Source: Schmidtea nova (lineage: Eukaryota). Taken from it: a stretch of DNA of 64,000 nucleotides. Below, in pieces: positions 1-25,500 of the stretch. The stretch is taken from the NCBI GenBank assembly GCA_044892505.1, contig CM097882.1:348068001-348132000 (forward strand), in the 5' to 3' direction. Position numbers and translations under genes: made by a program. Each line of letters begins with the position of its first letter. Positions within the stretch are counted from its first letter, which is position 1. Below the pieces are notes generated by a model. That model ran no database searches. It was not told where the DNA came from and saw only the letters and a list, made by a program, of their open reading frames with translations.

Positions 1-2682
1 ATGTAAATTGCTAGCTTTTCTGTACAATAAAATCCTAAAATTAGACATTATTCCTACAAGTTGGAAATCATTTAAAACGATACTAATCCCCAAACCAGAT
101 AAAAATGGCCAATATCATAAAATATATTCTTGGCGACCAATTGCCTTATTATCTGTCATTTACAAAGTCTTCGCTTCAGTTTTGGCAAATCGTCTAAGCT
201 TATGGATAAGAAATAATTCCATGTTACACATTGGCCAAAAGGGTGGTTCGGAGTACGAAGGATGTATTGAACACAACTCTATTCTTTCTGCTATCGTCGA
301 ACATTCAAAATACAGCAAGTCTTCACCTTTAACGATAGCTTGGCTAGACATCAAAGATGCCTTCGGAAGTGTTCCACATGACTACATGTGGACACTGTTA
401 AAACACATAAATTTTAGTGATAGGTTTGTAGGAATTTTAAAACTGCTCTATACTGATACAAGCTCGTTTTATTGTTGCAATAAAATGCAGACACCGGATA
501 TTCCAATAAAGAAAGGAGTTAAACAAGGTTGTCCGATCTCAATGATATTGTTTGCAATAGCTATTAACCCAGTACTTGAGTCTATTAACCTATCAAACGT
601 TAATCCTTTTACGATTGGAACGTCTCCGGTACAGGTGTTGGCTTATGCGGATGATATCGCACTTATCGCGACAAATACCTCTGATCTGCAAATACTCATA
701 AACGTTGCTGTAAACACCGCTAAAACAATTGGATTTGAATATCGTCCAGAAAAGTGCGCTTATATGCAATACCCTAAATCAGAAACTGTAAGCGAGATTT
801 CTGTCAACAACGTTCTTATCAAAAAGATTGCAACAAATGAATTTTACCAATACTTGGGAGTACCAATAGGTGACAATAATGATCAAAGTCCCTATGAAAT
901 TCTAAGCAAAGTAATTGAAGACACAAAGAAAATAGCAAATTCTGATCTTTACGGCTGGCAAAAACTTAAAGCGTATAAGGTCTTTCTGCATTCTCGCTTG
1001 ATTTTTCCATTTAGAACTAGGGAAATCAAAACAAGTTCTTTAGCTGATTCGAGTAAAAATTCAAAATTAAATGTAAATAATACGAGTATTTTGAGGAGTC
1101 ATCTTAGAAAAATATTGCACTTGCCACACTACTCTGAGATTAGCTATTTTTATAATTCTACTGAAAACGGCGGTGCAGGCTGCATAGACTTACTTGACGA
1201 GTATCATACACAGACAATCGTGTACTTTTTCCGCTTGTTAACATCAACGTGCGAATATTCGAAAAAGATAAATACTGACTCGCTTTTATTTGTCACAAGT
1301 CCGAGACTCGGAATCAAAAATCCAGTTCTTAAACAAAGTTTAGAATGGATAAATGGAAAAGAGAGCAAGAAAAACAACAGTGGTTGCAAAACTCGATTTT
1401 ATCGATTGCGATCATCCAATGCTTACTTTTCTAAAGTTCACAACATTAAATTGTTATTTGAAACAGTGAAAGGGAATCCTTCTATTCGGATAACCACTAC
1501 ACTTAAGGGAACACGTATATTATTACCAACATTAAGAAAAGCATTGTCAATGATTTTACATTCAGCTCTCCAGGATTCGTATCTCGAGAAATGGGAGAAT
1601 AGCAATCATAATAATCTGCTTGTATCTGCGATTAAACTCTGTCCACTTGTCAACAAGCTTATTTTCCGCAGTGATTTGACAGAATTTGAATGGAGATTCG
1701 TCCATCGAGCAAGAACGAATACATTATCAATATTTGCGAAGCCATATAAAACTGGCGAAAATCGTCTTTGTCGTAGATGTAAGCTTGGAGACGAGACTTT
1801 ATCACACGTTCTTCAAACTTGTAAAATGAACAAATCTTTGGCAACTTGTCGACATAACGCTTGCTTAGAAAAAATAAAAAGCGAGTTGAAAGATCCAAAC
1901 TTGTTAGTTGTTGCGGATCATAAATGTTCCCTAGTACCGACATCAACTGAACGCGTTGAATTAATAATAACCAATAATGATAAAAAGACCATATTATTGG
2001 TAGACATGAAATGCCCAATCGATTCGGTGCCCAACTTTGACTTGGCTGATAAAAAAAACATAGAAAAGTATGATAAACTAAAATCAGAAATTAAAATAGC
2101 CAAACCCGATTATAAAGTTGAGTTGTTTACCTGCATCATAGGCTCATTAGGATCCATTGAAATTAAAACACCTGATCTTTTAGTAAAAATGGGCGTAAAA
2201 GAAAATAAAGTAAAGCGTCTGATGAAAGAGTGTGCAATTAGCAATATTGCACACTCGGCCAAAATTTGGTACTTTCATACCAATGACTTTCTTCCAGATA
2301 ATATAAGACAAACTTGTAAATAAATAATTATATATATATATATATATATATTTGCTTTTTAAACTCTGTAAATAAAAATTAAAGTAAATATTTTGTAAAG
2401 TAATTTTTGTTTTAAATATCCAATCTTTTTATTCTGATAAATTGTCTTTGAGAGTTATTAAATTGGGAGACCAAGTATTCTGCGACGTATGTCATTTATT
2501 CTAGACTTATCAACTTCAAAAGAATACAGTCGCAAAGCTGGATGACGAAATCCAAAGAACCAGAAACTTCCATTCAGATTGAACAATTATATTTTGACTG
2601 TGATTGTTAAGGGACTAATCCATGTCGATTAGATAATCTGTAAAAAAAATATGTCAAACTTGTTATATTTAATAAATGTTTA
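1..2682 (+). mobile_element. RLE non-LTR retrotransposon copy E1 (3' part; cut by window start)
   Basis: RT-CCHC-RLE coding end plus 359-bp 3' UTR ending ...AATAAATGTTTA, joined to tRNA nt 19 (TTATCAC) at 2683. Confidence 0.95.
2..2323 (+). CDS. E1 ORF2, C-terminal part: reverse transcriptase, CCHC zinc knuckle, restriction-like endonuclease (5' partial)
   Basis: WRPIALL, LDIKDAFGSVPH, GVKQGCP, YADD, YLG, CRRC-x8-H-x4-C, RHN, DMK, KY, GSLG motifs. Frame is open from the window edge. Confidence 0.95.
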   Translation, partial: CKLLAFLYNKILKLDIIPTSWKSFKTILIPKPDKNGQYHKIYSWRPIALLSVIYKVFASVLANRLSLWIRNNSMLHIGQKGGSEYEGCIEHNSILSAIVEHSKYSKSSPLTIAWLDIKDAFGSVPHDYMWTLLKHINFSDRFVGILKLLYTDTSSFYCCNKMQTPDIPIKKGVKQGCPISMILFAIAINPVLESINLSNVNPFTIGTSPVQVLAYADDIALIATNTSDLQILINVAVNTAKTIGFEYRPEKCAYMQYPKSETVSEISVNNVLIKKIATNEFYQYLGVPIGDNNDQSPYEILSKVIEDTKKIANSDLYGWQKLKAYKVFLHSRLIFPFRTREIKTSSLADSSKNSKLNVNNTSILRSHLRKILHLPHYSEISYFYNSTENGGAGCIDLLDEYHTQTIVYFFRLLTSTCEYSKKINTDSLLFVTSPRLGIKNPVLKQSLEWINGKESKKNNSGCKTRFYRLRSSNAYFSKVHNIKLLFETVKGNPSIRITTTLKGTRILLPTLRKALSMILHSALQDSYLEKWENSNHNNLLVSAIKLCPLVNKLIFRSDLTEFEWRFVHRARTNTLSIFAKPYKTGENRLCRRCKLGDETLSHVLQTCKMNKSLATCRHNACLEKIKSELKDPNLLVVADHKCSLVPTSTERVELIITNNDKKTILLVDMKCPIDSVPNFDLADKKNIEKYDKLKSEIKIAKPDYKVELFTCIIGSLGSIEIKTPDLLVKMGVKENKVKRLMKECAISNIAHSAKIWYFHTNDFLPDNIRQTCK

Positions 2683-2737
2683 TTATCACGTCTGCTTCAC
2701 ACGCAGAAGGTCCCCGGTTCGATCCCGGGTCGAACCA
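2683..2737 (+). pseudogene. 3' part (nt 19-73) of tRNA-Val(CAC) interrupted by E1
   Basis: TTATCACGTCTGCTTCACACGCAGAAGGTCCCCGGTTCGATCCCGGGTCGAACCA; nt 1-18 absent at this junction. Confidence 0.95.
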
Positions 2738-2993
2738 TATTTTATTAATTAGAAACTTCCTAATCTTGATTTTTTCTCAATGGAACACCTTTCTCATATA
2801 TGTTACAATATTAAAAATGATTGAATAATCAGAGAAAAAAGTTAAAATTTCATTTTCATAAATGTAGTGTGTGAAAGCTTTCTATCCTTTTGCAATTTTA
2901 TGATTATTTTGTGCAGTGTTGTTTATTTAAATATGTAACTGTTGAAAAAAAGAATATTGGATATGAAAATGGATAAAGTATTGCAAGTGTTGA

Positions 2994-3001
2994 TATATAT
3001 A
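2994..3001 (+). promoter_or_regulatory. TATA-like (TA)n element at -41..-34 in spacer B (representative; present in every spacer B except the one before E3)
   Basis: TATATATA upstream of tRNA nt 1, with CAA immediately before nt 1. Position is compatible with a TFIIIB/TBP site, but the sequence is AT-rich so support is weak. Confidence 0.3.
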
Positions 3002-3034
3002 TTGTAAATTTTAACGATTGATAAATTCTTTCAA

Positions 3035-3043
3035 GGTTCGATG
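3035..3043 (+). pseudogene. 5' stub (nt 1-9, GGTTCGATG) of tRNA-Val interrupted by E2
   Basis: Spacer B end TTCTTTCAA + GGTTCGATG, then element sequence ACTCAATC. Confidence 0.9.
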
Positions 3044-5674
3044 ACTCAATCACCTGCTGCTCAGTCAACTGCTGCTGATGTAATGACTCAGTCTATTGCA
3101 AATCAGTCAACTGTGACGAAGCAATATGAATTAGAAAACATTCTCAAATATCAAATTTCCAGTTTGCAATGTTTTCAATCGATTTTAGATTATTTTTCTC
3201 AACTAAATGGTGGAAATCTCGCTACTGCCTCAGTTCTATCTGATGCGAATGCAAGTCAACGGAGTTCTTTCGATCAAGGATCTAAAATTTCTCCAAACCA
3301 ATCTGATAATATGCCACTTTCTTATGCTGATATTGAGACTAAATTCACTAAATCAAAGGATTTACTTATTGTCAAGCGCCTGGATTCATTGGAGTCTCAA
3401 TTTATGAATATGGCTGAAAAGTTAGATTATTTGGTTTCTTTGTTTAATGGCTCTGTTGATGATTTATCAGATTTTCCTAAAGTAAATGAAAATAATTTAA
3501 ATAATAATCCTTTCAATAAAAATAAAGTTTTTGATATCAAAGATAAATTAATTGTAAATAATGTAGTTTTAGATAAATCAAATATTTCAGAATTTATTGA
3601 AAATAATATTGCTAAAATTCCTAATAGTTTAATTGATGTAAATAATAAAATGTGTAATTCAAATAATAAATTTCTAAATAACCCTAATAAAGAGAATGTT
3701 AAACATTTTAATAATCCCAAAGATACATCTTCAATTGATTTGACTAACGATAAAATTATGCCAAATGAAAACATAGAAATAATTATTAAAAATAATAAAA
3801 AATCTGTTAAAATTATAGAACTTTATAAAACAACTAAACAGAAGTATGATAAATTTGAATTTAAAAGTCTGGTTCGTATTTTAACGAAAAGGGAACGCCA
3901 GAAAATCTTGAATGCCTTCCCTGCTTTAATACAACTAATTAAAAAGAAAGAATCACAGAGTAAATATTTTGAAATTAATAAATTTCTTTCGAGCAAAGAT
4001 TTTAATGTGAATCACTTGAATTTAATTAATTTTGATTATTTTTTCTATAGAAATTGTAATCTTTGTGTATCTTTAAAATTGAACAACGCTCCTGTCATTT
4101 CATCAGCACCAAAACCTGTTGTTTTAAAAACTATTAAATTAATTGACCATAATATCGTCAAAATAAATTCTGAAATCCCTGACTTTGTTCGAGCTCCAAT
4201 GTCAATTCGAAGATTTTTATTCAATCTTTCGCACGATCTTTCAAACACTGTTTCCATCAAGGATGAGAAACACAGGGGAAATAAAATAAATAACATTCTT
4301 ACTTCAATGAAACATAAACAACAATTACCAGATTATTTAATAAAATCAAACATTAAATACGAAAATGGTGAGTTCTTATTATTAGATTTGACTAACGATA
4401 AAATCAAATTGAACGACGATAATAACTTGATAAAATCAAATTTTTCTGAACTTACTAGAAGTCAGATTAAAAATCTTTACCATTCTTATCCTTCTCTTAA
4501 GGAAGTTTGTTTCGTTGAAAATCTTGAAACAAGATCATCATCCGTTAGTAAAATTATCGAATCTTTAAAGTTAATTAATGAATTTCCAAAAAATATCATT
4601 TTTAAAGAGGGTAAATTTTATCAGTCTGATAAAAGAACAATCTCACCTAGTAGTTCTCCTGACATAATGTTCAACCTTGGTCTTTTTAATTTAGCTAGTA
4701 TGAGTAGAAAAGATTGTGAATTAAAATCCATTTTAGAGAAGACTGGTTGTGACTTTAAAATAGTTGAAATAATATTCTACCTCAACTATTTAGGCTTGAC
4801 TCAATCTTTAGAATTTTGCAAAAATCAAACTTATTCTGATTATGTGAGGAATTACGTCTGCAATTGCTGCTTGATAAACTCACTCTGTAGTATTGCTGAT
4901 GTTGATTCGCTTTCATCTGAAGATTTTGAGGGTTGGGCGACCGAAATTGTTCAGAAAATCCCAGTTTCTTCCTATTACTTCAATAGCTGCCAGGAAAAGC
5001 TTTTAAAGCTGAAGCAATGGGACATTTCAACTAAAATCAAAAGAATCCATAACGTTATTTCACCTGAAATAATATCTTATTTAAATAACTTTCTTGACTC
5101 TGTAGACGTAAAATTTCCATCTAAGTCTCAACAACATAATATTCTAATTAAATTAATGAAAGCTATCAATGACATTAAAATTTTTGATGACATACACGGA
5201 AATAAAGCAAAAAGACTTGTTTACTTTTTGCTAAGAGATGCCAAGAAATATTTGAATAAAAATCAACGATTCAGATTATTTGAATCGAGCAATAAATATT
5301 GCACTTTAGAGATGGAGAATATAATTTCAGTAATAATTGAGAACCTTACCAAAGTTACTGACCATGAAGTTACTACTCCTGAAATCACAGTTGAAGAAAC
5401 GCCAATTGAAATAACTTGTGATCCTGAACCTATCGTCTTGATTAAGGAAATAAACTGTTTAAAATGCAACAATATCATCGAAAAATGCATTCTTGTTAGA
5501 GATGGAACAAACGTCAACATCTGTGAAAGCTGTCTATTTGACGCAATTACCTTTGAAAAGCCGATTCCTGAAGCTACTAATTCGGATATCGAAGAAAATA
5601 TAGAAACAAATTGTAAGAAATCTTGTCCAAGACCTAGAAAAACAGACAAGAAAACATCAACCAAAGCAAAATGA
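3041..5674 (+). CDS. E2 ORF1, 877 aa, Asn/Lys-rich, C-terminal C-x2-C-x18-C-x2-C zinc finger; function unknown
   Basis: Long ORF kept open in all 7 copies; no family recognisable by eye. Confidence 0.85.
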   Translation: MTQSPAAQSTAADVMTQSIANQSTVTKQYELENILKYQISSLQCFQSILDYFSQLNGGNLATASVLSDANASQRSSFDQGSKISPNQSDNMPLSYADIETKFTKSKDLLIVKRLDSLESQFMNMAEKLDYLVSLFNGSVDDLSDFPKVNENNLNNNPFNKNKVFDIKDKLIVNNVVLDKSNISEFIENNIAKIPNSLIDVNNKMCNSNNKFLNNPNKENVKHFNNPKDTSSIDLTNDKIMPNENIEIIIKNNKKSVKIIELYKTTKQKYDKFEFKSLVRILTKRERQKILNAFPALIQLIKKKESQSKYFEINKFLSSKDFNVNHLNLINFDYFFYRNCNLCVSLKLNNAPVISSAPKPVVLKTIKLIDHNIVKINSEIPDFVRAPMSIRRFLFNLSHDLSNTVSIKDEKHRGNKINNILTSMKHKQQLPDYLIKSNIKYENGEFLLLDLTNDKIKLNDDNNLIKSNFSELTRSQIKNLYHSYPSLKEVCFVENLETRSSSVSKIIESLKLINEFPKNIIFKEGKFYQSDKRTISPSSSPDIMFNLGLFNLASMSRKDCELKSILEKTGCDFKIVEIIFYLNYLGLTQSLEFCKNQTYSDYVRNYVCNCCLINSLCSIADVDSLSSEDFEGWATEIVQKIPVSSYYFNSCQEKLLKLKQWDISTKIKRIHNVISPEIISYLNNFLDSVDVKFPSKSQQHNILIKLMKAINDIKIFDDIHGNKAKRLVYFLLRDAKKYLNKNQRFRLFESSNKYCTLEMENIISVIIENLTKVTDHEVTTPEITVEETPIEITCDPEPIVLIKEINCLKCNNIIEKCILVRDGTNVNICESCLFDAITFEKPIPEATNSDIEENIETNCKKSCPRPRKTDKKTSTKAK

Positions 5675-8600
5675 AGATGTGTGCCTGCATCAGCTCAATC
5701 GTCTGCCATTCCCTCTAATGAGACTGATGCAGAGAGCACAACTAAAAATAATATTTCAACTATCGACAATCGTGATCCTGAAGTGTGGTTTTCTGATAAT
5801 GATATTGATTGGTATCTTGAAAACCACATTGATAATCCAATGCATGGATATATTAAATGCTTTATAGTAAATATCATCTGTTCTAACATCACAGAAGATA
5901 TTGTTGAAATTCCACCATCTATTAGCAATGCTGAAATTGTATTTTGTCCACTCAACATTAACAATTCGCACTGGATTCTTTTTGTTTATAGTAAGAAAAT
6001 GTTATCTTCTTACTTTATTGACCCAATCCTTGCAAACAGACAAAAGCCAATCAATAAACAAATGGCTCAGAGAATTAATCTAAAACTGAATAGATTTTTT
6101 AATCTAAATATATCTGTGTCCCGACATCCACACAAACATCTTGAATATCAGAATAACAGCTTTGACTGTGGCCCATTTACGTGTGCTTATGCTGTGATTA
6201 TCAGTAAAGATTTGAACAGCTTTCCAAATGGGTTCATAGAGAAAATTCGTACCAGTGTGCATGAAAATCAAAATCGTATGCAAATAACCGAATCCACCTT
6301 ATTCGCTGGTACTAACTCCAAGATGGACATGACCAAAATAAATATCAAGAAAGCCCTTGCAAAAAAGAAAGTCATCACCAACACCTCAGATATGACCAAA
6401 GTATTGAACACTCAAAAACCGTGTGTGTCATCAATAATTAGTAAATATTACGAAAGTAATTCTAAAATAACAGTCTTATCTGCCGAACTAACTTTAAACC
6501 TAATTGCACAAAATACCTCCTTCATAGCTGATAATGTCACTTTCAAGCAGTTCAAAGGAATCGATCATGTTATAAGTATCATTCCTAAATTTAACGATTG
6601 GTGTCTCTTTGTCTATTCGAATAAACTTGACAGGAGCTACATGTTCGACTTCAATTATCGAAACATTGATGAAAGGCTAATTGAAATTGGTGAAAAGATA
6701 ACTGAATATCTGAATCAATTCACTCTTGTTTCTAAAATAAAATTCACACCTCATCATAGAATTTCTCATCCAACATTTCATTCTTACGATGATCAATATT
6801 TTGCAAGTTCTTTTATTGTATTTTTTGAGAAACTTGTCTTTGAAAGAATACTGGACAATGATAAGGTTTATGACTCATTAAGTGCTCTAAAATATCAGTC
6901 TTGTAAAGATCTTTCTCCTAGCCTAAGTTTCATTAATGGTAAAATATCCGACAAAATTATTGAGGAATATTTTGCTAGCCTAAACTTATCGACCAAATAT
7001 ATTCTTCTAAACACAACAATGTGTACTGCGCTTTCAGATGATTGCACTGAATACTTGAAAGACTTTGTAAACATTGAGTGCATGATGAAGGCTACTATAA
7101 TCTTTGTAATCATTTCTCCTCCAAGAGCCAACGACTTGCTCATGGTTATTGATTACGACGCTGATGAGCACTATTTATTAAGCCCAGTCACTAATGACTT
7201 GTTCGTTATGACTGAAGGATTCTGCTATAAATTACTAATTAAAATTAATGAGATTAGAGAGAGCACAGGACGTTCCTTGAAATCGCGTAATTGTCGACAT
7301 GACGTTAAAGGTTCTGGCTTATTTAGTAGGTTATTAATCTGTGCCTTTATTAAATATTATGCATTTGACCGATCTCTAGAAAATATCAATCTTCATGAAA
7401 TTGGCAAAATTATCTACTCACTTGTGCCATTGGTTGATAAAAATGATAATGCTGAGGAAGAAAGACGACTAAAATCAAAAGCTGTAAACTCTTTAAAACT
7501 AAATTTAAAACAGCGAATAGAAAAAGCCAATAATCTTATAATTTCACTTGAACACGCCAGTATTGATGAAATCATAAGTGGCATTCTTTCAAATATTCCT
7601 CGTCTTAAAGATTTGAACACCGATCACATTCGTACACCATATTTAGGTACTAAAATAGAAAAAGCTAGAAAATTCAAAAATTCCACTGAGTTTCTGTCAA
7701 ACATGAAAAAGACTGTGTATAGGATTTTGGGTAACAACACAGAATCAATTGCACCTCCTTATCAGGAAATTATTGACACTTTCAGTCATCCTGATACATT
7801 ACCTAGAAATTGGGAAAACATCTTAAAATTCACTAAGAGTTCTAAATATAGTCTTGAATTAAATCCAATGACACCTAAAGAAATCCTTTCAAGTCTTTGC
7901 AAAGCTGACAACACTTCTCCAGGTCTTGATAATGTTTGTTATAAAGATCTTTTGTTATTAGACCCTGAATGTAAATTGCTAGCTTTTCTGTACAATAAAA
8001 TCCTAAAATTAGACATTATTCCTACAAGTTGGAAATCATTTAAAACGATACTAATCCCCAAACCAGATAAAAATGGCCAATATCATAAAATATATTCTTG
8101 GCGACCAATTGCCTTATTATCTGTCATTTACAAAGTCTTCGCTTCAGTTTTGGCAAATCGTCTAAGCTTATGGATAAGAAATAATTCCATGTTACACATT
8201 GGCCAAAAGGGTGGTTCGGAGTACGAAGGATGTATTGAACACAACTCTATTCTTTCTGCTATCGTCGAACATTCAAAATACAGCAAGTCTTCACCTTTAA
8301 CGATAGCTTGGCTAGACATCAAAGATGCCTTCGGAAGTGTTCCACATGACTACATGTGGACACTGTTAAAACACATAAATGTTAGTGATAGGTTTGTAGG
8401 AATTTTAAAACTGCTCTATACTGATACAAGCTCGTTTTACTGTTGCAATAAAATGCAGACACCGGATATTCCAATAAAGAAAGGAGTTAAACAAGGTTGT
8501 CCGATCTCAATGATATTGTTTGCAATAGCTATTAACCCAGTACTTGAGTCTATTAATCTATCAAACGTTAATCCTTTTACGATTGGAACATCTCCGGTAC

Positions 8601-10644
8601 AGGTGTTGGCTTATGCGGATGATATCGCACTTATCGCGACAAATACCTCTGATCTGCAAATACTCATAAACGTTGCTGTAAACACCGCTAAAACAATTGG
8701 ATTTGAATATCGTCCAGAAAAGTGCGCTTATATGCAATTCCCTAAAATAGAAACTGTAAGCGAGATTTCTGTCAACAACGTTCTTATCAAAAAGATTGCA
8801 ACAAATGAATTTTACCAATACTTGGGAGTACCAATAGGTGACAATAATGATCAAAGTCCCTATGAAATTCTAAGCAAAGTAATTGAAGACACAAAGAAAA
8901 TAGCAAATTCTGATCTTTACGGCTGGCAAAAACTTAAAGCGTATAAGGTCTTTCTGCATTCTCGCTTGATTTTTCCATTTAGAACTAGGGAAATCAAAAC
9001 AAGTTCTTTAGCTGATTCGAGTAAAAATTCAAAATTAAATGTAAATAATACGAGTATTTTGAGGAGTCATCTTAGAAAAATATTGCACTTGCCACACTAC
9101 TCTGAGATTAGCTATTTTTATAATTCTACTGAAAACGGCGGTGCAGGCTGCATAGACTTACTTGACGAGTATCATACACAGACAATCGTGTACTTTTTCC
9201 GTTTGTTAACATCAACGTGCGAATATTCGAAAAAGATAAATACTGACTCGCTTTTATTTGTCACAAGTCCGAGACTCGGAATCAAAAATCCAGTTCTTAA
9301 ACAAAGTTTAGAATGGATAAATGGAAAAGAGAGCAAGAAAAACAACAGTGGTTGCAAAACTCGATTTTATCGGTTGCGATCATCCATTGCTTACTTTTCT
9401 AAAGTTCACAACATTAAATTGTTATTTGAAACAGTGAAAGGGAATCCTTCTATCCGTATAACCACTACACTTAAGGGAACACGTATATTATTACCAACAT
9501 TAAGAAAAGCCTTGTCAATGATTTTACATTCAGCTCTCCAGGATTCGTATCTCGAGAAATGGGAGAATAGCAATCATAATAATCTGCTTGTATCTGCGAT
9601 AAAACTCTGTCCACTTGTCAACAAGCTTATTTTCCGCAGTGATTTGACAGAATTTGAATGGAGATTCGTCCATCGAGCAAGAACGAATACATTATCAATA
9701 TTTGCGAAGCCATATAAAACTGGCGAAAATCGTCTTTGTCGTAGATGTAAGCTTGAAGACGAGACTTTATCACACGTTCTTCAAACTTGTAAAATGAACA
9801 AATCTTTGGCAACTAGTCGACATAACGCTTGCTTAGAAAAAATAAAAAGCGAGTTGAAAGATCCAAACTTGTTAGTTGTTGCGGATCATAAATGTTCCCT
9901 AGTACCGACATCAACTGAACGCGTTGATTTAATAATAACCAATAATGATAAAAAGACCATATTATTGGTAGACATGAAATGCCCAATCGATTCGGTGCCC
10001 AACTTTGACTTGGCTGATAAAAAAAACATAGAAAAGTATGATAAACTAAAATCAGAAATTAAAATAGCCAAACCCGATTATAAAGTTGAGTTGTTTACCT
10101 GCATCATAGGCTCATTAGGATCCATTGAAATTAAAACACCTGATCTTTTAGTAAAAATGGGAGTAAAAGAAAATAAAGTAAAACGTCTGATGAAAGAGTG
10201 TGCAATTAGCAATATTGCGCACTCGGCCAAAATTTGGTACTTTCATACCAATGGCTTTCTTCCAGATAATATAAGACAAACTTGTAAATAAATAATTATA
10301 TATATATAAATATTTGCTTTTTAAACTCTGTAAATAAAATTTAAAGTAAATATTTTGTAAAGTAATTTTTGTTTTAAATATCAAATCTTTTTAATCTGAT
10401 AAATTGTCTTTGAGAGTTATTAAATTGGGAGACCAAGTATTCTGCGACGTATGTCACTTATTCTAGACTTATCAACTTCAAAATAATACAGTCGCAAAGC
10501 TGGATGACGAAATCCAAAGAACCAGAAACTTCCATTCAGATTGAACAATTATATTTTGACTGTGATTGTTTAGGCACTAATCCATGTTGATTAGATAATC
10601 TGTAAAAAAAATATGTCAAACTTGTTATATTTAATAAATGTTTA
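3044..10644 (+). mobile_element. RLE non-LTR retrotransposon copy E2 (7601 bp)
   Basis: ORF1 + ORF2 + 353-bp 3' UTR between tRNA nt 9 and nt 19. Confidence 0.96.
5681..10291 (+). CDS. E2 ORF2: Ulp1-like protease(s) - RT - CCHC - RLE (start uncertain; GTG is only the ORF-finder call)
   Basis: HW97-98/D114/QNNSFDCG163 Ulp1 triad; PGLDN, AFGSVPH, QGCP, YADD; CRRC..H..C; RHN; RVD..DMK..KY RLE. Confidence 0.95.
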   Translation: MPASAQSSAIPSNETDAESTTKNNISTIDNRDPEVWFSDNDIDWYLENHIDNPMHGYIKCFIVNIICSNITEDIVEIPPSISNAEIVFCPLNINNSHWILFVYSKKMLSSYFIDPILANRQKPINKQMAQRINLKLNRFFNLNISVSRHPHKHLEYQNNSFDCGPFTCAYAVIISKDLNSFPNGFIEKIRTSVHENQNRMQITESTLFAGTNSKMDMTKINIKKALAKKKVITNTSDMTKVLNTQKPCVSSIISKYYESNSKITVLSAELTLNLIAQNTSFIADNVTFKQFKGIDHVISIIPKFNDWCLFVYSNKLDRSYMFDFNYRNIDERLIEIGEKITEYLNQFTLVSKIKFTPHHRISHPTFHSYDDQYFASSFIVFFEKLVFERILDNDKVYDSLSALKYQSCKDLSPSLSFINGKISDKIIEEYFASLNLSTKYILLNTTMCTALSDDCTEYLKDFVNIECMMKATIIFVIISPPRANDLLMVIDYDADEHYLLSPVTNDLFVMTEGFCYKLLIKINEIRESTGRSLKSRNCRHDVKGSGLFSRLLICAFIKYYAFDRSLENINLHEIGKIIYSLVPLVDKNDNAEEERRLKSKAVNSLKLNLKQRIEKANNLIISLEHASIDEIISGILSNIPRLKDLNTDHIRTPYLGTKIEKARKFKNSTEFLSNMKKTVYRILGNNTESIAPPYQEIIDTFSHPDTLPRNWENILKFTKSSKYSLELNPMTPKEILSSLCKADNTSPGLDNVCYKDLLLLDPECKLLAFLYNKILKLDIIPTSWKSFKTILIPKPDKNGQYHKIYSWRPIALLSVIYKVFASVLANRLSLWIRNNSMLHIGQKGGSEYEGCIEHNSILSAIVEHSKYSKSSPLTIAWLDIKDAFGSVPHDYMWTLLKHINVSDRFVGILKLLYTDTSSFYCCNKMQTPDIPIKKGVKQGCPISMILFAIAINPVLESINLSNVNPFTIGTSPVQVLAYADDIALIATNTSDLQILINVAVNTAKTIGFEYRPEKCAYMQFPKIETVSEISVNNVLIKKIATNEFYQYLGVPIGDNNDQSPYEILSKVIEDTKKIANSDLYGWQKLKAYKVFLHSRLIFPFRTREIKTSSLADSSKNSKLNVNNTSILRSHLRKILHLPHYSEISYFYNSTENGGAGCIDLLDEYHTQTIVYFFRLLTSTCEYSKKINTDSLLFVTSPRLGIKNPVLKQSLEWINGKESKKNNSGCKTRFYRLRSSIAYFSKVHNIKLLFETVKGNPSIRITTTLKGTRILLPTLRKALSMILHSALQDSYLEKWENSNHNNLLVSAIKLCPLVNKLIFRSDLTEFEWRFVHRARTNTLSIFAKPYKTGENRLCRRCKLEDETLSHVLQTCKMNKSLATSRHNACLEKIKSELKDPNLLVVADHKCSLVPTSTERVDLIITNNDKKTILLVDMKCPIDSVPNFDLADKKNIEKYDKLKSEIKIAKPDYKVELFTCIIGSLGSIEIKTPDLLVKMGVKENKVKRLMKECAISNIAHSAKIWYFHTNGFLPDNIRQTCK

Positions 10645-10699
10645 TTATCACGTCTGCTTTACACGCAGAAGGTCCCCGGTTCGATCCCGGGTCGAACCA
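10645..10699 (+). pseudogene. 3' part of tRNA-Val(TAC) interrupted by E2
   Basis: tRNA nt 19-73, loop TT-TAC-AC, followed by spacer A. Confidence 0.95.
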
Positions 10700-10845
10700 A
10701 ATTTTTATTGTAAATTGTTAAATCTTGTTTACTATGTTTCCATTGTTTACTAGTGTTATTTTGTGTGTGTGTGTTTTATTAGTAAATCAGATCAATTTAT
10801 TAAGCTGAAAGTTGGTAACAAACGAAAATTTGAAAATATTTACAG

Positions 10846-10918
10846 GGTTCGATGGTGTAGCGGTTATCACGTCTGCTTCACACGCAGAAGGTCCCCGGTT
10901 CGATCCCGGGTCGAACCA
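10846..10918 (+). tRNA. tRNA-Val: tRNA-Val(CAC)
   Basis: Cloverleaf: acceptor GGTTCGA/TCGAACC, anticodon stem TCTGC/GCAGA, loop TT-CAC-AC, T arm CCCGG-TTCGATC-CCGGG, discriminator A; A and B boxes intact. Confidence 0.97.
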
Positions 10919-10920
10919 TA

Positions 10921-10924
10921 TTTT
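10921..10924 (+). terminator. Pol III oligo(T) terminator, T4 at start of spacer B (representative)
   Basis: A73-TA-TTTT after every gene followed by spacer B. Confidence 0.6.
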
Positions 10925-11167
10925 ATTAATTAGAAACTTCCTAATCTTGATTTTTTCTCAATGGAACACCTTTCTCATATATGTTACAATATTAAAAATG
11001 ATTGAATAATTAGAGAAAAAAGTTAAAATTTCATTTTCATAAATGTAGTGTGTGAAAGCTTTCTATCCTTTTGCAATTTTATGATTATTTTGTGCAGTGT
11101 TGTTTATTTAAATATGTAACTGTTGAAAAAAAGAATATTGGATATGAAAATGGATAAAGTATTGCAA

Positions 11168-11175: not shown

Positions 11176-13806
11176 ACTCAATCACCTGCTGCTCAGTCAA
11201 CTGCTGCTGATGTGATGACTCAGTCTATTGGAAATCAGTCAACTGTGACGAAGAAATATGAATTAGAAAACATTCTCAAGTATCAAATTTCCAGTTTGCA
11301 ATGTTTTCAATCGATTTTGGATTATTTTTCGCAACTAAATGGTGGAAATCTCGCTACTGCCTCAGTTCTTTCTGATGCGAATGCAAGTCAACGGAGTTCT
11401 TTCGATCAAGGATCTAAAATTTCTCAAAACCAATCTGATAATATGCCACTTTCTTATGCTGATATTGAGACTAAATTCACTAAATCAAAGGATTTACTGA
11501 TTGTCAAGCGCCTGGATTCATTGGAGTCTCAATTTATGAATATGGCTGAAAAGTTAGATTATTTGGTTTCTTTTTTTAATGGCTCTGTTGATGATTTATC
11601 AGATTTTCCTAAAGTAAATGAAAATAATTTAAATAATAATCCTTTCAATAAAAATAAAGTTTTTGATATCAAAGATAAATTAATTGTAAATAATGTAGTT
11701 TTAGATAAATCAAATATTTCAGAATTTATTGAAAATAATATTGCTAAAATTCCTAATAGTTTAATTGATGTAAATAATAAAATGTGTAATTCAAATAATA
11801 AATTTCTAAATAACCCTAATAAAGAGAATGTTAAACATTTTAATAATCCCAAAGAAACATCTTCAATTGATTTGACTAACGATAAAATTATGCCAAATGA
11901 AAACATAGAAATAATTATTAAAAATAATAAAAAATCTGTTAAAATTATAGAACCTAATAAAACAACTAAACAGAAGTATGATAAATTTGAATTTAAAAAT
12001 CTGGTTCGTATTTTAACGAAAAGGGAACGCCAGAAAATCTTGAATGCCTTCCCTGCTTTAATACAACTAATTAAAAAGAAAGAATCACAGAGTAAATATT
12101 TTGAAATTAATAAATTTCTTTCGAGCAAAGATTTTAATGTGAATCACTTGAATTTAAATAATTTTGATTATTTTTTCTATAGAAATTGTAATCTTTGTGT
12201 ATCTTTAAAATTGAACAACGCTCCTGTCATTTTATCAGCACCAAAACCTGTTGTTTTAAAAACTATTAAATTAATTGACCATAATATCGTCAAAATAAAT
12301 TCTGAAATCCCTGACTTTGTTCGAGCTCCAATGTCAATTCGAAGATTTTTATTCAATCTTTCGCACGATCTTTCAAACACTGTTTCCATCAAGGATGAGA
12401 AACACAGGGGAAATAAAATAAATAACATTCTTACTTCAATGAAACATAAACAACAATTACCAGATTATTTAATAAAATCAAACATTAAATACGAAAATGG
12501 TGAGTTCTTATTATTAGATTTGACTAACGATAAAATCAAATTGAACGACGATAATAACTTGATAAAATCAAATTTTTCTGAACTTACTAGAAGTCAGATT
12601 AAAAATCTTTACTATTCTTATCCTTCTCTTAAGGAAGTTTGTTTCGTTGAAAATCTTGAAACAAGATCATCATCCGTTAGTAAAATTATCGAATCTTTAA
12701 AGTTAATTAATGAATTTCCAAAAAATATCATTTTTAAAGAGGGTAAATTTTATCAGTCTGATAAAAGAACAATCTCACCTAGTAGTTCTCCTGACATAAT
12801 GTTCAACCTTGGTCTTTTTAATTTGGCTAGTATGAGTAGAAAAGATTGTGAATTAAAATCCATTTTAGAGAAGACTGGTTGTGACTTTAAAATAGTTGAA
12901 ATAATATTCTACCTCAACTATTTAGGCTTGACTCAATCTTTAGAATTTTGCAAAAATCAAACTTATTCTGATTATGTGAGGAATTACGTCTGTAATTGCT
13001 GCTTGATAAACTCACTCTGTAGTATTGCTGATGTTGATTCGCTTTCATCTGAAGATTTTGAGGGTTGGGCGACCGAAATTGTTCAGAAAATCCCAGTTTC
13101 TTCCTATTACTTCAATAGCTGCCAGGAAAAGCTTTTAAAGCTGAAGCAATGGGACATTTCAACTAAAATCAAAAGAATCCATAACGTTATTTCACCTGAA
13201 ATAATATCTTATTTAAATAACTTTCTTGACTCTGTAGACGTAAAATTTCCATCTAAGTCTCAACAACATAATATTCTAATTAAATTAATGAAAGCTATCA
13301 ATGACATTAAAATTTTTGATGACATACACGGAAATAAAGCAAAAAGACTTGTTTACTTTTTGCTAAGAGATGCCAAGAAATATTTGAATAAAAATCAACG
13401 ATTCAGATTATTTGAATCGAGCAATAAATATTGCACTTCAGAGATGGAGAATATAATTTCAGTAATAATTGAGAACCTTACCAAAGTTACTGACCATGAA
13501 GTTACTACTCCTGAAATCACAGTTGAAGAAACGCCAATTGAAATAACTTGTGATCCTGAACCTATCGTCTTGATTAAGGAAATAAACTGTTTAAAATGTA
13601 ACAATATCATCGAAAAATGCATTCTTGTTAGAGATGGAACAAACGTCAACATCTGTGAAAGCTGTCTATTTGACGCAATTACCTCTGAAAAGCCGATTCC
13701 TGAAGCTACTAATTCGGATACCGAAGAAAATATGGAAACAAATAGTAAGAAATCTTGTCCAAGACCTAGAAAAACAGACAAGAAAACATCAACCAAAGCG
13801 AAATGA
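11173..13806 (+). CDS. E3 ORF1 (877 aa)
   Basis: Near-identical to E2 ORF1. Confidence 0.85.
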   Translation: MTQSPAAQSTAADVMTQSIGNQSTVTKKYELENILKYQISSLQCFQSILDYFSQLNGGNLATASVLSDANASQRSSFDQGSKISQNQSDNMPLSYADIETKFTKSKDLLIVKRLDSLESQFMNMAEKLDYLVSFFNGSVDDLSDFPKVNENNLNNNPFNKNKVFDIKDKLIVNNVVLDKSNISEFIENNIAKIPNSLIDVNNKMCNSNNKFLNNPNKENVKHFNNPKETSSIDLTNDKIMPNENIEIIIKNNKKSVKIIEPNKTTKQKYDKFEFKNLVRILTKRERQKILNAFPALIQLIKKKESQSKYFEINKFLSSKDFNVNHLNLNNFDYFFYRNCNLCVSLKLNNAPVILSAPKPVVLKTIKLIDHNIVKINSEIPDFVRAPMSIRRFLFNLSHDLSNTVSIKDEKHRGNKINNILTSMKHKQQLPDYLIKSNIKYENGEFLLLDLTNDKIKLNDDNNLIKSNFSELTRSQIKNLYYSYPSLKEVCFVENLETRSSSVSKIIESLKLINEFPKNIIFKEGKFYQSDKRTISPSSSPDIMFNLGLFNLASMSRKDCELKSILEKTGCDFKIVEIIFYLNYLGLTQSLEFCKNQTYSDYVRNYVCNCCLINSLCSIADVDSLSSEDFEGWATEIVQKIPVSSYYFNSCQEKLLKLKQWDISTKIKRIHNVISPEIISYLNNFLDSVDVKFPSKSQQHNILIKLMKAINDIKIFDDIHGNKAKRLVYFLLRDAKKYLNKNQRFRLFESSNKYCTSEMENIISVIIENLTKVTDHEVTTPEITVEETPIEITCDPEPIVLIKEINCLKCNNIIEKCILVRDGTNVNICESCLFDAITSEKPIPEATNSDTEENMETNSKKSCPRPRKTDKKTSTKAK

Positions 13807-16800
13807 AGATGTGTGCCTGCATCAGCTCAATCGTCTGCCATTCCCTCTAATGAGACTGATGCAGAGAGCACAACTAAAAATAATATTTCAACTATCGACA
13901 ATCGTGATCCTGAAGTGTGGTTTTCTGATAATGATATTGATTGGTATCTTGAAAACCACATTGATAATCCAATGCATGGATATATTAAATGCTTTATAGT
14001 AAATATCATCTGTTCTAACATCACAGAAGATATTGTTGAAATTCCACCATCTATTAGCAATGCTGAAATTGTATTTTGTCCACTCAACATTAACAATTCG
14101 CACTGGATTCTTTTTGTTTATAGTAAGAAAATGTTATCTTCTTACTTTATTGACCCAATCCTTGCAAACAGACAAAAGCCAATCAATAAACAAATGGCTC
14201 AGAGAATTAACCTAAAACTGAATAGATTTTTTAATCTAAATATATCTGTGTCCCGACATCCACACAAACATCTTGAATATCAAAATAACAGCTTTGATTG
14301 TGGCCCATTTACGTGTGCTTATGCTGTGATTATCAGTAAAGATTTGAACAGCTTTCCAAATGGGTTCATAGAGAAAATTCGTACCAGTGTGCATGAAAAT
14401 CAAAATCGTATGCAAATAACCGAATCCACCTTATTCGCTGGTACTAACTCCAAGATGGACATGACCAAAATAAATATCAAGAAAGCCCTTGCAAAAAAGA
14501 AAGTCATCACCAACACCTCAGATATGACCAAAGTATTGAACACTCAAAAACCGTGTGTGTCATCAATAATTAGTAAATATTACGAAAGTAATTCTAAAAT
14601 AACAGTCTTATCTGCCGAACTAACTTTAAACCTAATTGCACAAAATACCTCCTTCATAGCTGATAATGTCACTTTCAAGCAGTTCAAAGGAATCGATCAT
14701 GTTATAAGTATCATTCCTAAATTTAACGATTGGTGTCTCTTTGTCTATTCGAATAAACTTGACAGGAGCTACATGTTCGACTTCAATTATCGAAACATTG
14801 ATGAAAGGCTAATTGAAATTGGTGAAAAGATAACTGAATATCTGAATCAATTCACTCTTGTTTCTAAAATAAAATTCACACCTCATCATAGAATTTCTCA
14901 TCCAACATTTCATTCTTACGATGATCAATATTTTGCAAGTTCTTTTATTGTATTTTTTGAGAAACTTGTCTTTGAAAGAATACTGGACAATGATAAGGTT
15001 TATGACTCATTAAGTGCTCTAAAATATCAGTCTTGTAAAGATCTTTCTCCTAGCCTAAGTTTCATTAATGGTAAAATATCCGACAAAATTATTGAGGAAT
15101 ATTTTGCTAGCCTAAACTTATCGACCAAATATATTCTTCTAAACACAACAATGTGTACTGCGCTTTCAGATGATTGCACTGAATACTTGAAAGACTTTGT
15201 AAACATTGAGTGCATGATGAAGGCTACTATAATCTTTGTAATCATTTCTCCTCCAAGAGCCAACGACTTGCTCATGGTTATTGATTACGACGCTGATGAG
15301 CACTATTTATTAAGCCCAGTCACTAATGACTTGTTCGTTATGACTGAAGGATTCTGCTATAAATTACTAATTAAAATTAATGAGATTAGAGAGAGCACAG
15401 GACGTTCCTTGAAATCGCGTAATTGTCGACATGACGTTAAAGGTTCTGGCTTATTTAGTAGGTTATTAATCTGTGCCTTTATTAAATATTATGCATTTGA
15501 CCGATCTCTAGAAAATATCAATCTTCATGAAATTGGCAAAATTATCTACTCACTTGTGCCATTAGTTGATAAAAATGATAATGCTGAGGAAGAAAGACGA
15601 CTAAAATCAAAAGCTGTAAACTCTTTAAAACTAAATTTAAAACAGCGAATAGAAAAAGCCAATAATCTTATAATTTCACTTGAACACGCCAGTATTGATG
15701 AAATCATAAGTGGCATTCTTTCAAATATTCCTCGTCTTAAAGATTTGAACACCGATCACATTCGTACACCATATTTAGGTACTAAAATAGAAAAAGCTAG
15801 AAAATTCAAAAATTCCACTGAATTTCTGTCAAACATGAAAAAGACTGTGTATAGGATTTTGGGTAATAACACAGAATCAATTGCACCTCCTTTTCAGGAA
15901 ATTATTGACACTTTCAGTCATCCTGATACATTACCTAGAAATTGGGAAAACATCTTAAAATTTACAAAAACTTCTAAAACTAGTCTTGAATTAAATCCAA
16001 TGACACCTAAAGAAATCATGTCAAGTCTTGGCAAAGCTGACAACACTTCTCCAGGTCTTGATAATGTCTGTTATAAAGATCTTTTGCTATTAGACCCTGA
16101 ATGTAAATTGTTAACTTTTCTATACAATAAAATCCTAAAATTAGATATTATTCCCACAAGTTGGAAATCATTTAAAACCATACTGATTCCAAAACCAGAT
16201 AAAAATGGCCAATATCATAAAATATCTTCTTGGCGACCAATTGCCTTATTATCTGTCATTTACAAAGTCTTCGCTTCAGTTTTGGCAAATCGTCTAAGCT
16301 TATGGATAAGAAATAATTCCATGTTACACATTGGCCAAAAGGGTGGTTCGGAGTACGAAGGATGTATTGAACACAACTCTATTCTTTCTGCTATCGTCGA
16401 ACATTCAAAATACAGCAAGTCTTTACCTTTAACGATAGCTTGGCTAGACATCAAAGATGCCTTAGGAAGTGTTCCACATGACTACATGTGGACACTGTTA
16501 AAACACATAAATGTTAGTGATAGGTTTGTAGGAATTTTAAAACTGCTCTATACTGATACAAGCTCGTTTTATTGTTGCAATAAAATGCAAACACCGGATA
16601 TTCCAATAAAGAAAGGAGTTAAACAAGGTTGTCCGATCTCAATGATATTGTTTGCAATAGCTATTAACCCAGTACTTGAGTCTATTAATCTATCAAACGT
16701 TAATCCTTTTACGATTGGAACATCTCCGGTACAGGTGTTGGCTTATGCGGATGATATCGCACTTATCGCGACAAATACCTCTGATCTGCAAATACTCATA

Positions 16801-22578: not shown

Positions 22579-25500
22579 AGATGTGTGCCTGCATCAGCTC
22601 AATCGTCTGCCATTCCCTCTAATGAGACTGATGCAGAGAGCACAACTAAAAATAATATTTCAACTATCGACAATCGTGATCCTGAAGTGTGGTTTTCTGA
22701 TAATGATATTGATTGGTATCTTGAAAACCACATTGATAATCCAATGCATGGATATATTAAATGCTTTATAGTAAATATCATCTGTTCTAACATCACAGAA
22801 GATATTGTTGAAATTCCACCATCTATTAGCAATGCTGAAATTGTATTTTGTCCACTCAACATTAACAATTCGCACTGGATTCTTTTTGTTTATAGTAAGA
22901 AAATGTTATCTTCTTACTTTATTGACCCAATCCTTGCAAACAGACAAAAGCCAATCAATAAACAAATGGCTCAGAGAATTAACCTAAAACTGAATAGATT
23001 TTTTAATCTAAATATATCTGTGTCCCGACATCCACACAAACATCTTGAATATCAAAATAACAGCTTTGATTGTGGCCCATTTACGTGTGCTTATGCTGTG
23101 ATTATCAGTAAAGATTTGAACAGCTTTCCAAATGGGTTCATAGAGAAAATTCGTACCAGTGTGCATGAAAATCAAAATCGTATGCAAATAACCGAATCCA
23201 CCTTATTCGCTGGTACTAACTCCAAGATGGACATGACCAAAATAAATATCAAGAAAGCCCTTGCAAAAAAGAAAGTCATCACCAACACCTCAGATATGAC
23301 CAAAGTATTGAACACTCAAAAACCGTGTGTGTCATCAATAATTAGTAAATATTACGAAAGTAATTCTAAAATAACAGTCTTATCTGCCGAACTAACTTTA
23401 AACCTAATTGCACAAAATACCTCCTTCATAGCTGATAATGTCACTTTCAAGCAGTTCAAAGGAATCGATCATGTTATAAGTATCATTCCTAAATTTAACG
23501 ATTGGTGTCTCTTTGTCTATTCGAATAAACTTGACAGGAGCTACATGTTCGACTTCAATTATCGAAACATTGATGAAAGGCTAATTGAAATTGGTGAAAA
23601 GATAACTGAATATCTGAATCAATTCACTCTTGTTTCTAAAATAAAATTCACACCTCATCATAGAATTTCTCATCCAACATTTCATTCTTACGATGATCAA
23701 TATTTTGCAAGTTCTTTTATTGTATTTTTTGAGAAACTTGTCTTTGAAAGAATACTGGACAATGATAAGGTTTATGACTCATTAAGTGCTCTAAAATATC
23801 AGTCTTGTAAAGATCTTTCTCCTAGCTTAAGTTTCATTAATGGTAAAATATCCGACAAAATTATTGAGGAATATTTTGCTAGCCTAAACTTATCGACCAA
23901 ATATATTCTTCTAAACACAACAATGTGTACTGCGCTTTCAGATGATTGCACTGAATACTTGAAAGACTTTGTAAACATTGAGTGCATGATGAAGGCTACT
24001 ATAATCTTTGTAATCATTTCTCCTCCAAGAGCCAACGACTTGCTCATGGTTATTGATTACGACGCTGATGAGCACTATTTATTAAGCCCAGTCACTAATG
24101 ACTTGTTCGTTATGACTGAAGGATTCTGCTATAAATTACTAATTAAAATTAATGAGATTAGAGAGAGCACAGGTCGTTCCTTGAAATCGCGTAATTGTCG
24201 ACATGACGTTAAAGGTTCTGGCTTATTTAGTAGGTTATTAATCTGTGCCTTTATTAAATATTATGCATTTGACCGATCTCTAGAAAATATCAATCTTCAT
24301 GAAATTGGCAAAATTATCTACTCACTTGTGCCATTAGTTGATAAAAATGATAATGCTGAGGAAGAAAGACGACTAAAATCAAAAGCTGTAAACTCTTTAA
24401 AACTAAATTTAAAACAGCGAATAGAAAAAGCCAATAATCTTATAATTTCACTTGAACACGCCAGTATTGATGAAATCATAAGTGGCATTCTTTCAAATAT
24501 TCCTCGTCTTAAAGATTTGAACACCGATCACATTCGTACACCATATTTAGGTACTAAAGTAGAAAAAGCTAGAAAATTCAAAAATTCCACTGAATTTCTG
24601 TCAAACATGAAAAAGACTGTGTATAGGATTTTGGGTAACAACACAGAATCAATTGCACCTCCTTTTCAGGAAATTATTGACACTTTCAGTCATCCTGATA
24701 CATTACCTAGAAATTGGGAAAACATCTTTAAATTCACTAAGAGTTCTAAATTTAGTCTTGAATTAAATCCAATGACACCTAAAGAAATCCTTTCAAGTCT
24801 TTGCAAAGCTGACAACACTTCTCCAGGTCTTGATAATGTTTGTTATAAAGATCTTTTGCTATTAGACCCTGAATGTAAATTGCTAGCTTTTCTGTACAAT
24901 AAAATCCTAAAATTAGACATTATTCCTACAAGTTGGAAATCATTTAAAACCATACTAATCCCTAAACCAGATAAAAATGGCCAATATCATAAAATATATT
25001 CTTGGCGACCAATTGCCTTATTATCTGTCATTTACAAAGTCTTCGCTTCAGTTTTGGCAAATCGTCTAAGCTTATGGATAAGAAATAATTCCATGTTACA
25101 CATTGGCCAAAAGGGTGGTTCGGAGTACGAAGGATGTATTGAACACAACTCTATTCTTTCTGCTATCGTCGAACATTCAAAATACAGCAAGTCTTCACCT
25201 TTAACAATAGCTTGGCTAGACATCAAAGATGCCTTCGGAAGTGTTCCACATGACTACATGTGGACACTGTTAAAACACATAAATGTTAGTGATAGGTTTG
25301 TAGGAATTTTAAAACTGCTCTATACTGATACAAGCTCGTTTTATTGTTGCAATAAAATGCAGACACCGGATATTCCAATAAAGAAAGGAGTTAAACAAGG
25401 TTGTCCGATCTCAATGATATTGTTTGCAATAGCTATTAACCCAGTACTTGAGTCTATTAATCTATCAAACGTTAATCCTTTTACGATTGGAACATCTCCG

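Follow-up and report, generated by a model that had tools for sequence, protein, structure and literature searches.

An in-frame UGA followed by a predicted hairpin separates the two ORFs of a tRNA-Val-targeting non-LTR retrotransposon of Schmidtea nova and points to probable stop-codon readthrough

The window analysed here is a stretch of 64,000 nucleotides (nt) from Schmidtea nova (assembly GCA_044892505.1, contig CM097882.1, positions 348,068,001 to 348,132,000 of the forward strand). It is an AT-rich (27–35% GC) eukaryotic tandem array with 24 intact tRNA-Val genes (anticodons CAC and TAC), broken by a 7.6-kb element that has two open reading frames (ORFs) and is present in seven copies; copy 7 is cut by the window end and the 3′ part of an eighth copy is also present. 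The element is a site-specific retrotransposon without long terminal repeats (a non-LTR retrotransposon) of the restriction-like endonuclease (RLE), or R2, group. All positions given are those of the window, on the + strand unless stated otherwise, and features are described for copy 1. ORF1 (3041–5674; 877 amino acids [aa] from the first ATG, plus TGA) codes for a conserved protein; ORF2 (5675–10291) has 1538 codons plus TAA, with its first in-frame ATG at 5840 (codon 56), and is followed by a 3′ untranslated region (UTR; 10292–10644).

ORF2 lies directly behind the TGA of ORF1, and in the same frame, in all seven copies (the stops end at 5674, 13806, 22578, 32094, 42203, 52240 and 60795). 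This agrees with an earlier reading of the sequence alone (hereafter the original prediction), according to which ORF2 continues the ORF1 frame behind a single UGA. The length of ~2416 aa that it gave for a fusion of the 877-aa ORF1 with the 1538-codon ORF2 was also correct. Its codon numbering was off: the first in-frame ATG and a protease tryptophan had been placed at codons 54 and 36, whereas they are codon 56 and W38 when counted from the codon after the stop (54 and 36 fit a count from the GTG). The junction reads AAA-TGA-AGA-TGT-GTG-CCT at 5669–5686 (TGA, 5672–5674). The stop context AAA-UGA-AGA (5669–5677) is the same in 7/7 copies, and so are the 90 nt 3′ of the stop; stop and hairpin recur at 13804–13872, 22576–22644, 32092–32160, 42201–42269, 52238–52306 and 60793–60861 in copies 2 to 7, ORF2 of the last running off the window. 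UGA occurs once in the 2416 codons, against 17 TGG. Between the stop and the strong stem is a 10-nt spacer (5675–5684), the 3′ part of which falls in a weak lower stem. The spacer holds an in-frame GUG (5681–5683, codon 3 of ORF2) and an out-of-frame AUG at 5677, and another AUG, at 5671, overlaps the stop. These out-of-frame AUGs, at −3 and +3, thus flank the stop; each has an A at its own position −3 and they open frames of 13–15 codons only. An AUG near the ORF1 stop, of the type found in SART1, is missing from ORF2, whose first AUG is 166 nt from the stop, leaving the GUG at +7 as a possible start. The AUGA at the stop (5671) opens a 15-codon frame which ends in the hairpin loop at UAAUG, itself the opening of a 49-codon frame; these small frames (5671–5718) are probably due to chance. 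In structure models the junction is a disordered linker, with a predicted local distance difference test score (pLDDT) below 50.

The hairpin behind the stop consists of a core 5′ arm (5685–5697; 9 + 4 bp) coding for P-A-S-A-Q, a 21-nt loop (5698–5718) whose peptide is not conserved in relatives, and a 3′ arm (5719–5740; core 5719–5732, lower stem 5736–5740) coding for E-T-D-A-E-S-T. Its predicted stability is −25.1 kcal/mol (z −3.34), equalled by 2 of 200 dinucleotide shuffles and by 5 of 5000 synonymous recodings. Among the 783 70-nt windows in the element it ranks second in stability and joint highest in GC content (49%), and it has the best z of 199 coding windows, the next being close (−3.2 vs −3.5). 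Folded in a 301-nt context, the core stems 5685–5693/5724–5732 and 5694–5697/5719–5722 have pair probabilities of 0.85–1.0, as expected from the GC-rich hairpin with a 9-bp and a 4-bp core described in the original prediction. There the hairpin was taken to begin 5 nt after the stop, by way of a lower stem 5680–5684/5736–5740. That register (~0.36; −22.7 kcal/mol) turned out to be less likely than a shifted one, 5678–5682/5736–5740 (~0.6; minimum free energy structure). Since the lower-stem registers compete and the core is strong, the robust stem begins 10 nt after the UGA, and the functional spacer in the folding model is probably about 10 nt rather than 5. The predicted 13-bp core, with its weak extension from 3–5 nt, therefore starts within the 7–12 nt that characterize readthrough sites. 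The identity of the hairpin among the seven copies is uninformative on selection, the probability of finding no variable site in 72 nt being 0.37.

The amino-terminal part of ORF2 contains a Ulp1/SENP-like cysteine protease (aa 34–203; 5774–6283; Pfam Peptidase_C48, E 6e-7; Foldseek matches to SENP/Ulp1), of which H99, D116, Q159 and C165 are invariant in 7/7 aligned ORF2s. In a model of residues 1–620, residues 1–33 are disordered and the protease is confidently predicted (pLDDT mostly >90), including a helix at 41–51. Model and sequence inspection indicate two more domains with a protease-like secondary-structure pattern and no catalytic motif (6419–7474), which would be inactive repeats. 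The start of ORF2 is thus a row of three tandem protease-pattern domains (5774–7474), the catalytic H/D/Q/C being confined to the first. Further downstream are a reverse transcriptase (RT; aa 794–1053; 8054–8833; Pfam RVT_1, E 2e-29) and a CCHC zinc knuckle with a D...D-x-K restriction-like endonuclease motif (9737–9982), knuckle and endonuclease being recognized as motifs with invariant columns. The first methionine of ORF2, M56, which is not conserved in the relative P0001, falls within the modelled protease fold (helix 41–51, WFxD motif). A start at M56 would therefore break the protease, so that readthrough, a restart at a non-AUG codon or splicing remain as routes to ORF2.

The ORF1 protein gave no Pfam match at the cut-off, no Foldseek match at E ≤ 0.001 and no match in PDB or the ESM Atlas. 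In its model (mean pLDDT 60; best VIA Z 6.0, on generic helices) a strand–three helices–strands unit occurs three times (aa 276–346, 382–448 and 468–529), alongside a domain of helices and, at the C terminus, a zinc ribbon that corresponds to a CxxC...CxxC motif (5456–5533) located 46 residues before the stop. Variable codons among the copies were divided into synonymous and non-synonymous ones: 15 and 22, respectively, in ORF1 (ratio of non-synonymous to synonymous polymorphism, pN/pS, 0.36; P 0.003), and 41 and 18 in ORF2 (pN/pS 0.12; P 1e-15).

Assignment to the RLE group is based on the non-LTR-type RT, the C-terminal CCHC and endonuclease motifs and site-specific insertion in a multicopy gene. 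The best solved relatives of the RT are R2 proteins (top 3 of 10 PDB matches, E 3e-53 to 6e-41), and a Pfam scan of the element proteins found no apurinic/apyrimidinic endonuclease (APE) family. The domain set matches that of the NeSL clade as described (PMC4640811; this and most of the other papers cited are referred to by the excerpts available), a placement by domain set and not by RT phylogeny. The Ulp1-like cysteine protease upstream of the RT is present; the N-terminal zinc fingers on the RT's own ORF, which are typical of NeSL elements without strictly defining them, are absent. The sole Cys motif on the N-terminal side is the one at the ORF1 C-terminus, ahead of the stop, and would be on the same chain as the RT only after readthrough. 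No named NeSL, R5, LIN or Utopia sequence was among the retrieved relatives, and the RT tree is made of unnamed rows.

A query spanning the junction, in which X took the place of the stop, yielded 65 proteins. ORF1-type and ORF2-type matches are separate proteins: none of the 65 is a full-length fusion (the longest has 1540 aa), and none was found in word-based searches reaching ~2690 aa, the sensitivity of which is low. One of the word-based protein searches gave only P0001 and another 23 unrelated RT proteins; a third, on shorter proteins, found no relative among 5579 candidates. The ORF1 homologue P0025 ends exactly at the last residue of the window ORF1. Five of 10 ORF1 homologues have the terminal CxxC motif and end 37–57 residues past it (46 in the window); the other five lack it. 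In one relative, P0038, a single frame runs from the ORF1 zinc ribbon via Ser-Gln-Ser-Val-Pro-Ala-Ser-Val into the protease (VPASV...DADST; 27% identity over 255 columns), with a Ser three codons before the V, where the window has its stop. The 40 residues from CxxC to this V correspond to 37 plus one codon plus 2, matching the ORF1 tails of 37 residues in P0014 and P0019. The Ser may be a mutated stop; judged from this single protein, and whether or not a stop was mutated, the two ORFs share frame and spacing in a distant relative. A scan of GTDB genomes gave 75 loci (L001–L075), all of them distant RT contaminants (best segment 22–34% identity), with a protease or ORF1 homologue in 0/75. Many contigs in these bins carry eukaryotic-type non-LTR RT genes, some matching through the RLE region (e.g. 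L002–L009), and are probably eukaryotic contamination. Phage records contained no match to the junction.

Conservation of the stem was examined by way of the peptides encoded by its arms, in 16 of the 65 proteins: 15 whose N-terminus precedes the WFxD motif of the protease, and P0038. The remaining matches, being ORF1-type, starting inside the domain or looking cellular, were excluded. Third codon positions are invisible to this proxy, and Ser, Leu and Arg codons were chosen favourably. Both arm peptides (V/M-P-A-S-type and T/S/A-D/G-A/V-E/D-S-T) are kept in 6/16 relatives, with 24–55% identity in the protease; five of these six have the 9-residue loop length of the window with an unrelated loop sequence, and in P0010 the loop has 5 residues. 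When the peptides are read as codons, compensation is seen in P0010 (Pro opposite Gly, C-G for U-A) and in P0021 (Thr opposite Val, A-U for G-C), and at the next stem pair Asp/Ser alternates with Val/Thr or Val/Ala across the motif rows. The window, P0005, P0015 and P0038 have one core mismatch each. With correctly matched arms 45 of 49 determined pairs are compatible, against 41.0 in permuted pairings (92 of 5040 permutations as high, p 0.018); for Watson–Crick pairs only, the values are 43 and 37.3 (36 of 5040, p 0.007). Omission of a pair added after inspection lowered the number of permutations as high to 48 and 12 of 5040, respectively, and six slid registers gave p 0.57–1.0. Leave-one-out p values ranged from 0.006 to 0.028 (Watson–Crick) and from 0.011 to 0.094 with G-U pairs. 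A first stem score (7 pairs, free loop length) gave weak results, with best p values of 0.037–0.043 in 3 of 17 rows, and was not relied on by itself. The protease tree is poorly resolved; in it the motif rows are not united in a single clade (4 changes, a number as low in 32 of 500 shuffles), and all 7 fall in a weakly supported 12-row group together with 5 non-motif rows. Of the 10 relatives without the motif, five are in the other half of the tree and the other five may have predicted starts that lie within the hairpin or beyond it. Read through the proteins, these data give moderate support to a conserved RNA stem directly behind the end of ORF1.

The junction is a real and probably conserved recoding-type signal, and readthrough of the UGA appears to be the most likely route to ORF2, an interpretation in which we have moderate confidence. 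One mRNA would carry both ORFs; most ribosomes would terminate at the UGA and release the ORF1 protein, and a minority, slowed at the mRNA entry channel by the stem-loop core lying 10 nt past the stop, would insert a near-cognate amino acid and go on to make a 2416-aa ORF1–protease–RT–endonuclease polyprotein. Readthrough would thereby fix a high ORF1:ORF2 ratio, as in gammaretroviral gag-pro-pol, and the Ulp1-like protease encoded just after the stop may release the enzyme part by cleavage within the disordered linker. The frame, the single stop, the predicted hairpin, selection on both ORFs and the separate ORF1 proteins of relatives are directly visible in the sequences; the stem's conservation and covariation have indirect support, and readthrough itself, its rate and the cleavage are inferred. 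Readthrough fits the shared frame, the 10-nt spacer, the adenines 5′ of the stop and a stop–protease–RT order like that of murine leukaemia virus (MuLV). Spacers of 7–9 nt before the stem are typical of readthrough sites (alphaviruses, furoviruses and kelch, the last being a UGA-A site; PMC3159437), about 11–12 nt 3′ of the A-site codon fill the mRNA entry channel (PMC13517186), and the distance and stability of the stem matter for dfr readthrough (PMC13170385). The programmed readthrough put forward in the original prediction is favoured by the frame, the ORF1 ends, the stem-arm peptides, the in-frame fusion of one relative and the position of the AUG inside the protease fold, and disfavoured by the UGA-A context and the precedent of Tca2.

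Several observations weigh against readthrough. UGA-AGA-UGU is not one of the common leaky contexts (UGA-CUA/CGG or stop-CARYYA), the UGA junction of Tca2 alone gave no readthrough in reporters (PMC2194720), and in SART1 a downstream structure is used for reinitiation (PMC5972666). The relatives are known as proteins only, so that the identity of the stop, the frame and the base pairs are deduced from proteins. The seven motif rows were picked after inspection and are mutually related, 10 of the 16 relatives lack the motif, the per-row scores beat a best-of-14-windows null for 3/7 rows only (p 0.011), and the leave-one-out test with G-U pairs reaches the upper value given above. P0038 looks decayed, its catalytic W and C having been lost. 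Finally, the predicted start of five relatives is exactly at codon 3, though only 15 of the 114 Val codons here are GTG.

This last observation speaks for a different route, termination followed by reinitiation, in which some ribosomes would begin anew 6 nt past the stop, at codon 3 (GUG; in some relatives perhaps AUG), aided by the structure, and make a separate 1536-aa protein. Gene callers start only at ATG, GTG or TTG, which biases which rows show the motif, and codon 3 is Val in both rows in which it is read internally (the window and P0038). A codon-3 start would keep the whole modelled protease, and there are precedents, since SART1 couples its ORFs through a structure downstream of the stop–start site (PMC5972666) and LINE-1 ORF2 uses unconventional reinitiation (PMC5009743). 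The GUG has a poor context, though (U at −3, C at +4), and lies in the lower stem, the pairing of which can by itself explain why GTG was kept; the two out-of-frame AUGs nearer to the stop would compete with it. Reinitiation also needs no shared frame, whereas both the window and P0038 are in frame. We regard this route as unlikely, though as the rival to be taken most seriously; a GUG restart under a hairpin would, if true, also be unusual.

It is improbable that the stop is removed in a minor spliced mRNA. Across the stop there are 26 in-frame GT-AG pairs, of which the best, with a consensus-like donor and a YAG acceptor, would define an intron of 81 nt that starts with GTAAGA at 5613 and ends with CAG at 5693, and the C and G of this CAG are compatible with the residues of 7/7 motif rows; yet a GT-AG pair is expected by chance in AT-rich DNA, the acceptor is buried in the 9-bp stem (pairing probability ~1.0), which would limit its use, and P0025 shows no visible conservation of the donor. 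Spliced segments tend to be lost from elements that are copied from their own RNA, yet all seven copies retain this segment. Still lower is the probability that we attach to selenocysteine insertion, host-wide reassignment of UGA or an M56 start served by an internal promoter. The codon is indeed UGA, and Tca2 has a minor junction promoter (PMC2194720), but the site is in a disordered linker, and Rfam gave no match other than tRNA in 2600–11000 at E ≤ 1, no dedicated search for a selenocysteine insertion sequence (SECIS) having been made. Reassignment disagrees with the codon counts given above and with termination of the relatives at this place, and a start at M56 would truncate the modelled protease. 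The weakest explanation, in which the UGA is an inactivating mutation of one ancestor that unequal crossing-over distributed through the tRNA array, and the hairpin a coincidence, would suit >99% identical mosaic copies sharing one junction, but it is very improbable and already largely refuted: in relatives, too, ORF1 ends and ORF2 begins at this place, no full-length fusion was found in the searches described, and there is purifying selection on both ORFs among the copies, so that the lineages sharing the stop were under selection and the stop is not a dead mutation.

All 5′ and 3′ junctions of the seven copies (7/7 each) are at one site in a tRNA-Val gene, of which nt 1–9 (3035–3043) precede and nt 19–73 (10645–10699) follow the element; nt 10–18 are lost at each insertion, a uniform 9-nt target deletion. 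The ATG of ORF1 is formed by nt 7–9 of the target gene in 7/7 copies (3035–3043; also 11173, 19945, 29461, 39570, 49607 and 58162). A 5′ UTR belonging to the element itself is therefore not visible, and the element may depend on the target and the upstream spacer for its start codon and promoter. The ORF1 homologue P0014 likewise starts with MTQS. All seven insertions are behind the long spacer type (2740–3034 and equivalents), which precedes 14 of the 24 intact tRNA genes; this preference and the uniform deletion suggest that upstream host sequence is co-transcribed or recognized. In copy 2 the upstream spacer has a deletion of ~50 nt, by which the first tRNA bases and a TATA-like run were lost. 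The tRNA-Val(CAC) and (TAC) genes (10846–57858) differ solely in the anticodon wobble base, and each is tied to its own downstream spacer type. The mosaic copies have 36–64 differences from copy 1. These differences cluster just upstream of the RT (~7760–8060, ORF2 codons 695–790) and are shared in mosaic fashion, which suggests that element lineages have recombined or undergone conversion. A double hairpin at the 3′ end of ORF2 (10196–10256; −27.4 kcal/mol, z −6.5), identical in 6 of 7 3′ ends, forms the strongest local structure of the element and may be an RNA signal bound by the RT. An antisense frame of 194 codons within ORF1 in three of the seven copies (11559–12143, 20331–20915 and 29847–30431, − strand) has no Pfam match and is likely incidental.

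The way in which the RT ORF of bicistronic non-LTR elements is translated is understood only in part. If true, readthrough would be a new mechanism for the non-LTR class and a convergence on retroviral gag-pro-pol logic; the NeSL-type protease would gain an obvious job, and the compact (~70 nt) UGA-A cassette would be easy to test. Annotation of ORF2 from its first AUG would truncate the protease, and engineers of site-specific elements need the real ORF2 protein. In full, the proposal is that a tRNA-targeting, protease-bearing RLE lineage independently evolved a gag-stop-pro-pol strategy, in which hairpin-stimulated readthrough would set the ratio of ORF1 to enzyme and the Ulp1-like protease would mature the polyprotein, with a hairpin conserved at ~25–35% protease identity and, in the present element, an ORF1 start codon supplied by the tRNA; for this combination we see about an even chance. 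The literature searched, with subscription papers and Repbase largely outside the search, reports neither readthrough between the ORFs of a non-LTR element nor this tRNA-Val element family, which may have been mentioned beyond that scope; the supplements of PMC4640811 and Repbase, also outside it, could describe a similar two-ORF junction. Reviews on non-LTR translation name, in the excerpts available, only reinitiation, frameshifting, bypassing and 2A skipping, the cases given there being reinitiation in SART1 and LINE-1 and frameshifting in HeT-A (PMC5972666, PMC5009743). The string 'retrotranspos' is absent from two readthrough papers (PMC13517186, PMC3159437), and the available part of PMC13708176 has nothing on readthrough between non-LTR ORFs. 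Among the NeSL group and its neighbours, NeSL-1, Utopia-1_TSP and R5/LIN share with the present element the RT followed by a C-terminal zinc finger and RLE, and NeSL and Utopia-1_TSP the Ulp1-like protease upstream of the RT (PMC4640811). Targets in the NeSL group include tRNA-Arg (LIN15_SM), tRNA-Glu (LIN25_SM) and tRNA-Pro (NeSL-1_TV), and Utopia elements generally encode one protein, in contrast to the separate 877-aa ORF1 before an in-frame UGA described here (PMC4640811). The present element further differs from those of the NeSL clade in its three protease-like folds and in its target, tRNA-Val between nt 9 and 19.

Two ORFs are also found in R5. Viruses and cellular genes offer well-known examples of readthrough stimulated by a structure, and LTR elements such as Tca2 have in-frame stops; SIRE1 is likewise an LTR element with an in-frame stop. 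SART1 and LINE-1 are bicistronic non-LTR elements like the present one, and SART1 needs a structure downstream of the junction; both have a junction AUG (a UAAUG overlap and a 63-nt spacer, respectively) and make separate proteins, whereas ORF2 here has no AUG for 55 codons (PMC5972666). Tca2 of Candida albicans has gag-UGA-pol in frame and a predicted 3′ structure, as here, but it is an LTR element, and the junction by itself gave no readthrough in yeast (PMC2194720). The readthrough sites of alphaviruses, furoviruses, coltiviruses, kelch and dfr resemble the present junction in having a stem of 11–14 bp 7–9 nt after the stop, and kelch in its UGA-A; adenines 5′ of the stop are common in readthrough sites, as they are here. 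The viral sites differ in being UGA-C, their loops are often much longer, and none of these sites is a retrotransposon ORF junction (PMC3159437, PMC13170385, as excerpted). With the gag-UAG-pro-pol of MuLV the element shares the order of structural ORF, in-frame stop, structure, protease, RT and nuclease, as well as a structure ~8–10 nt downstream of the stop which also codes for the start of the protease region. MuLV is a retrovirus with a UAG, an H-type pseudoknot and an aspartic protease; the present non-LTR element has a UGA, a predicted simple stem-loop and a cysteine protease (PMC13517186, PMC3159437).

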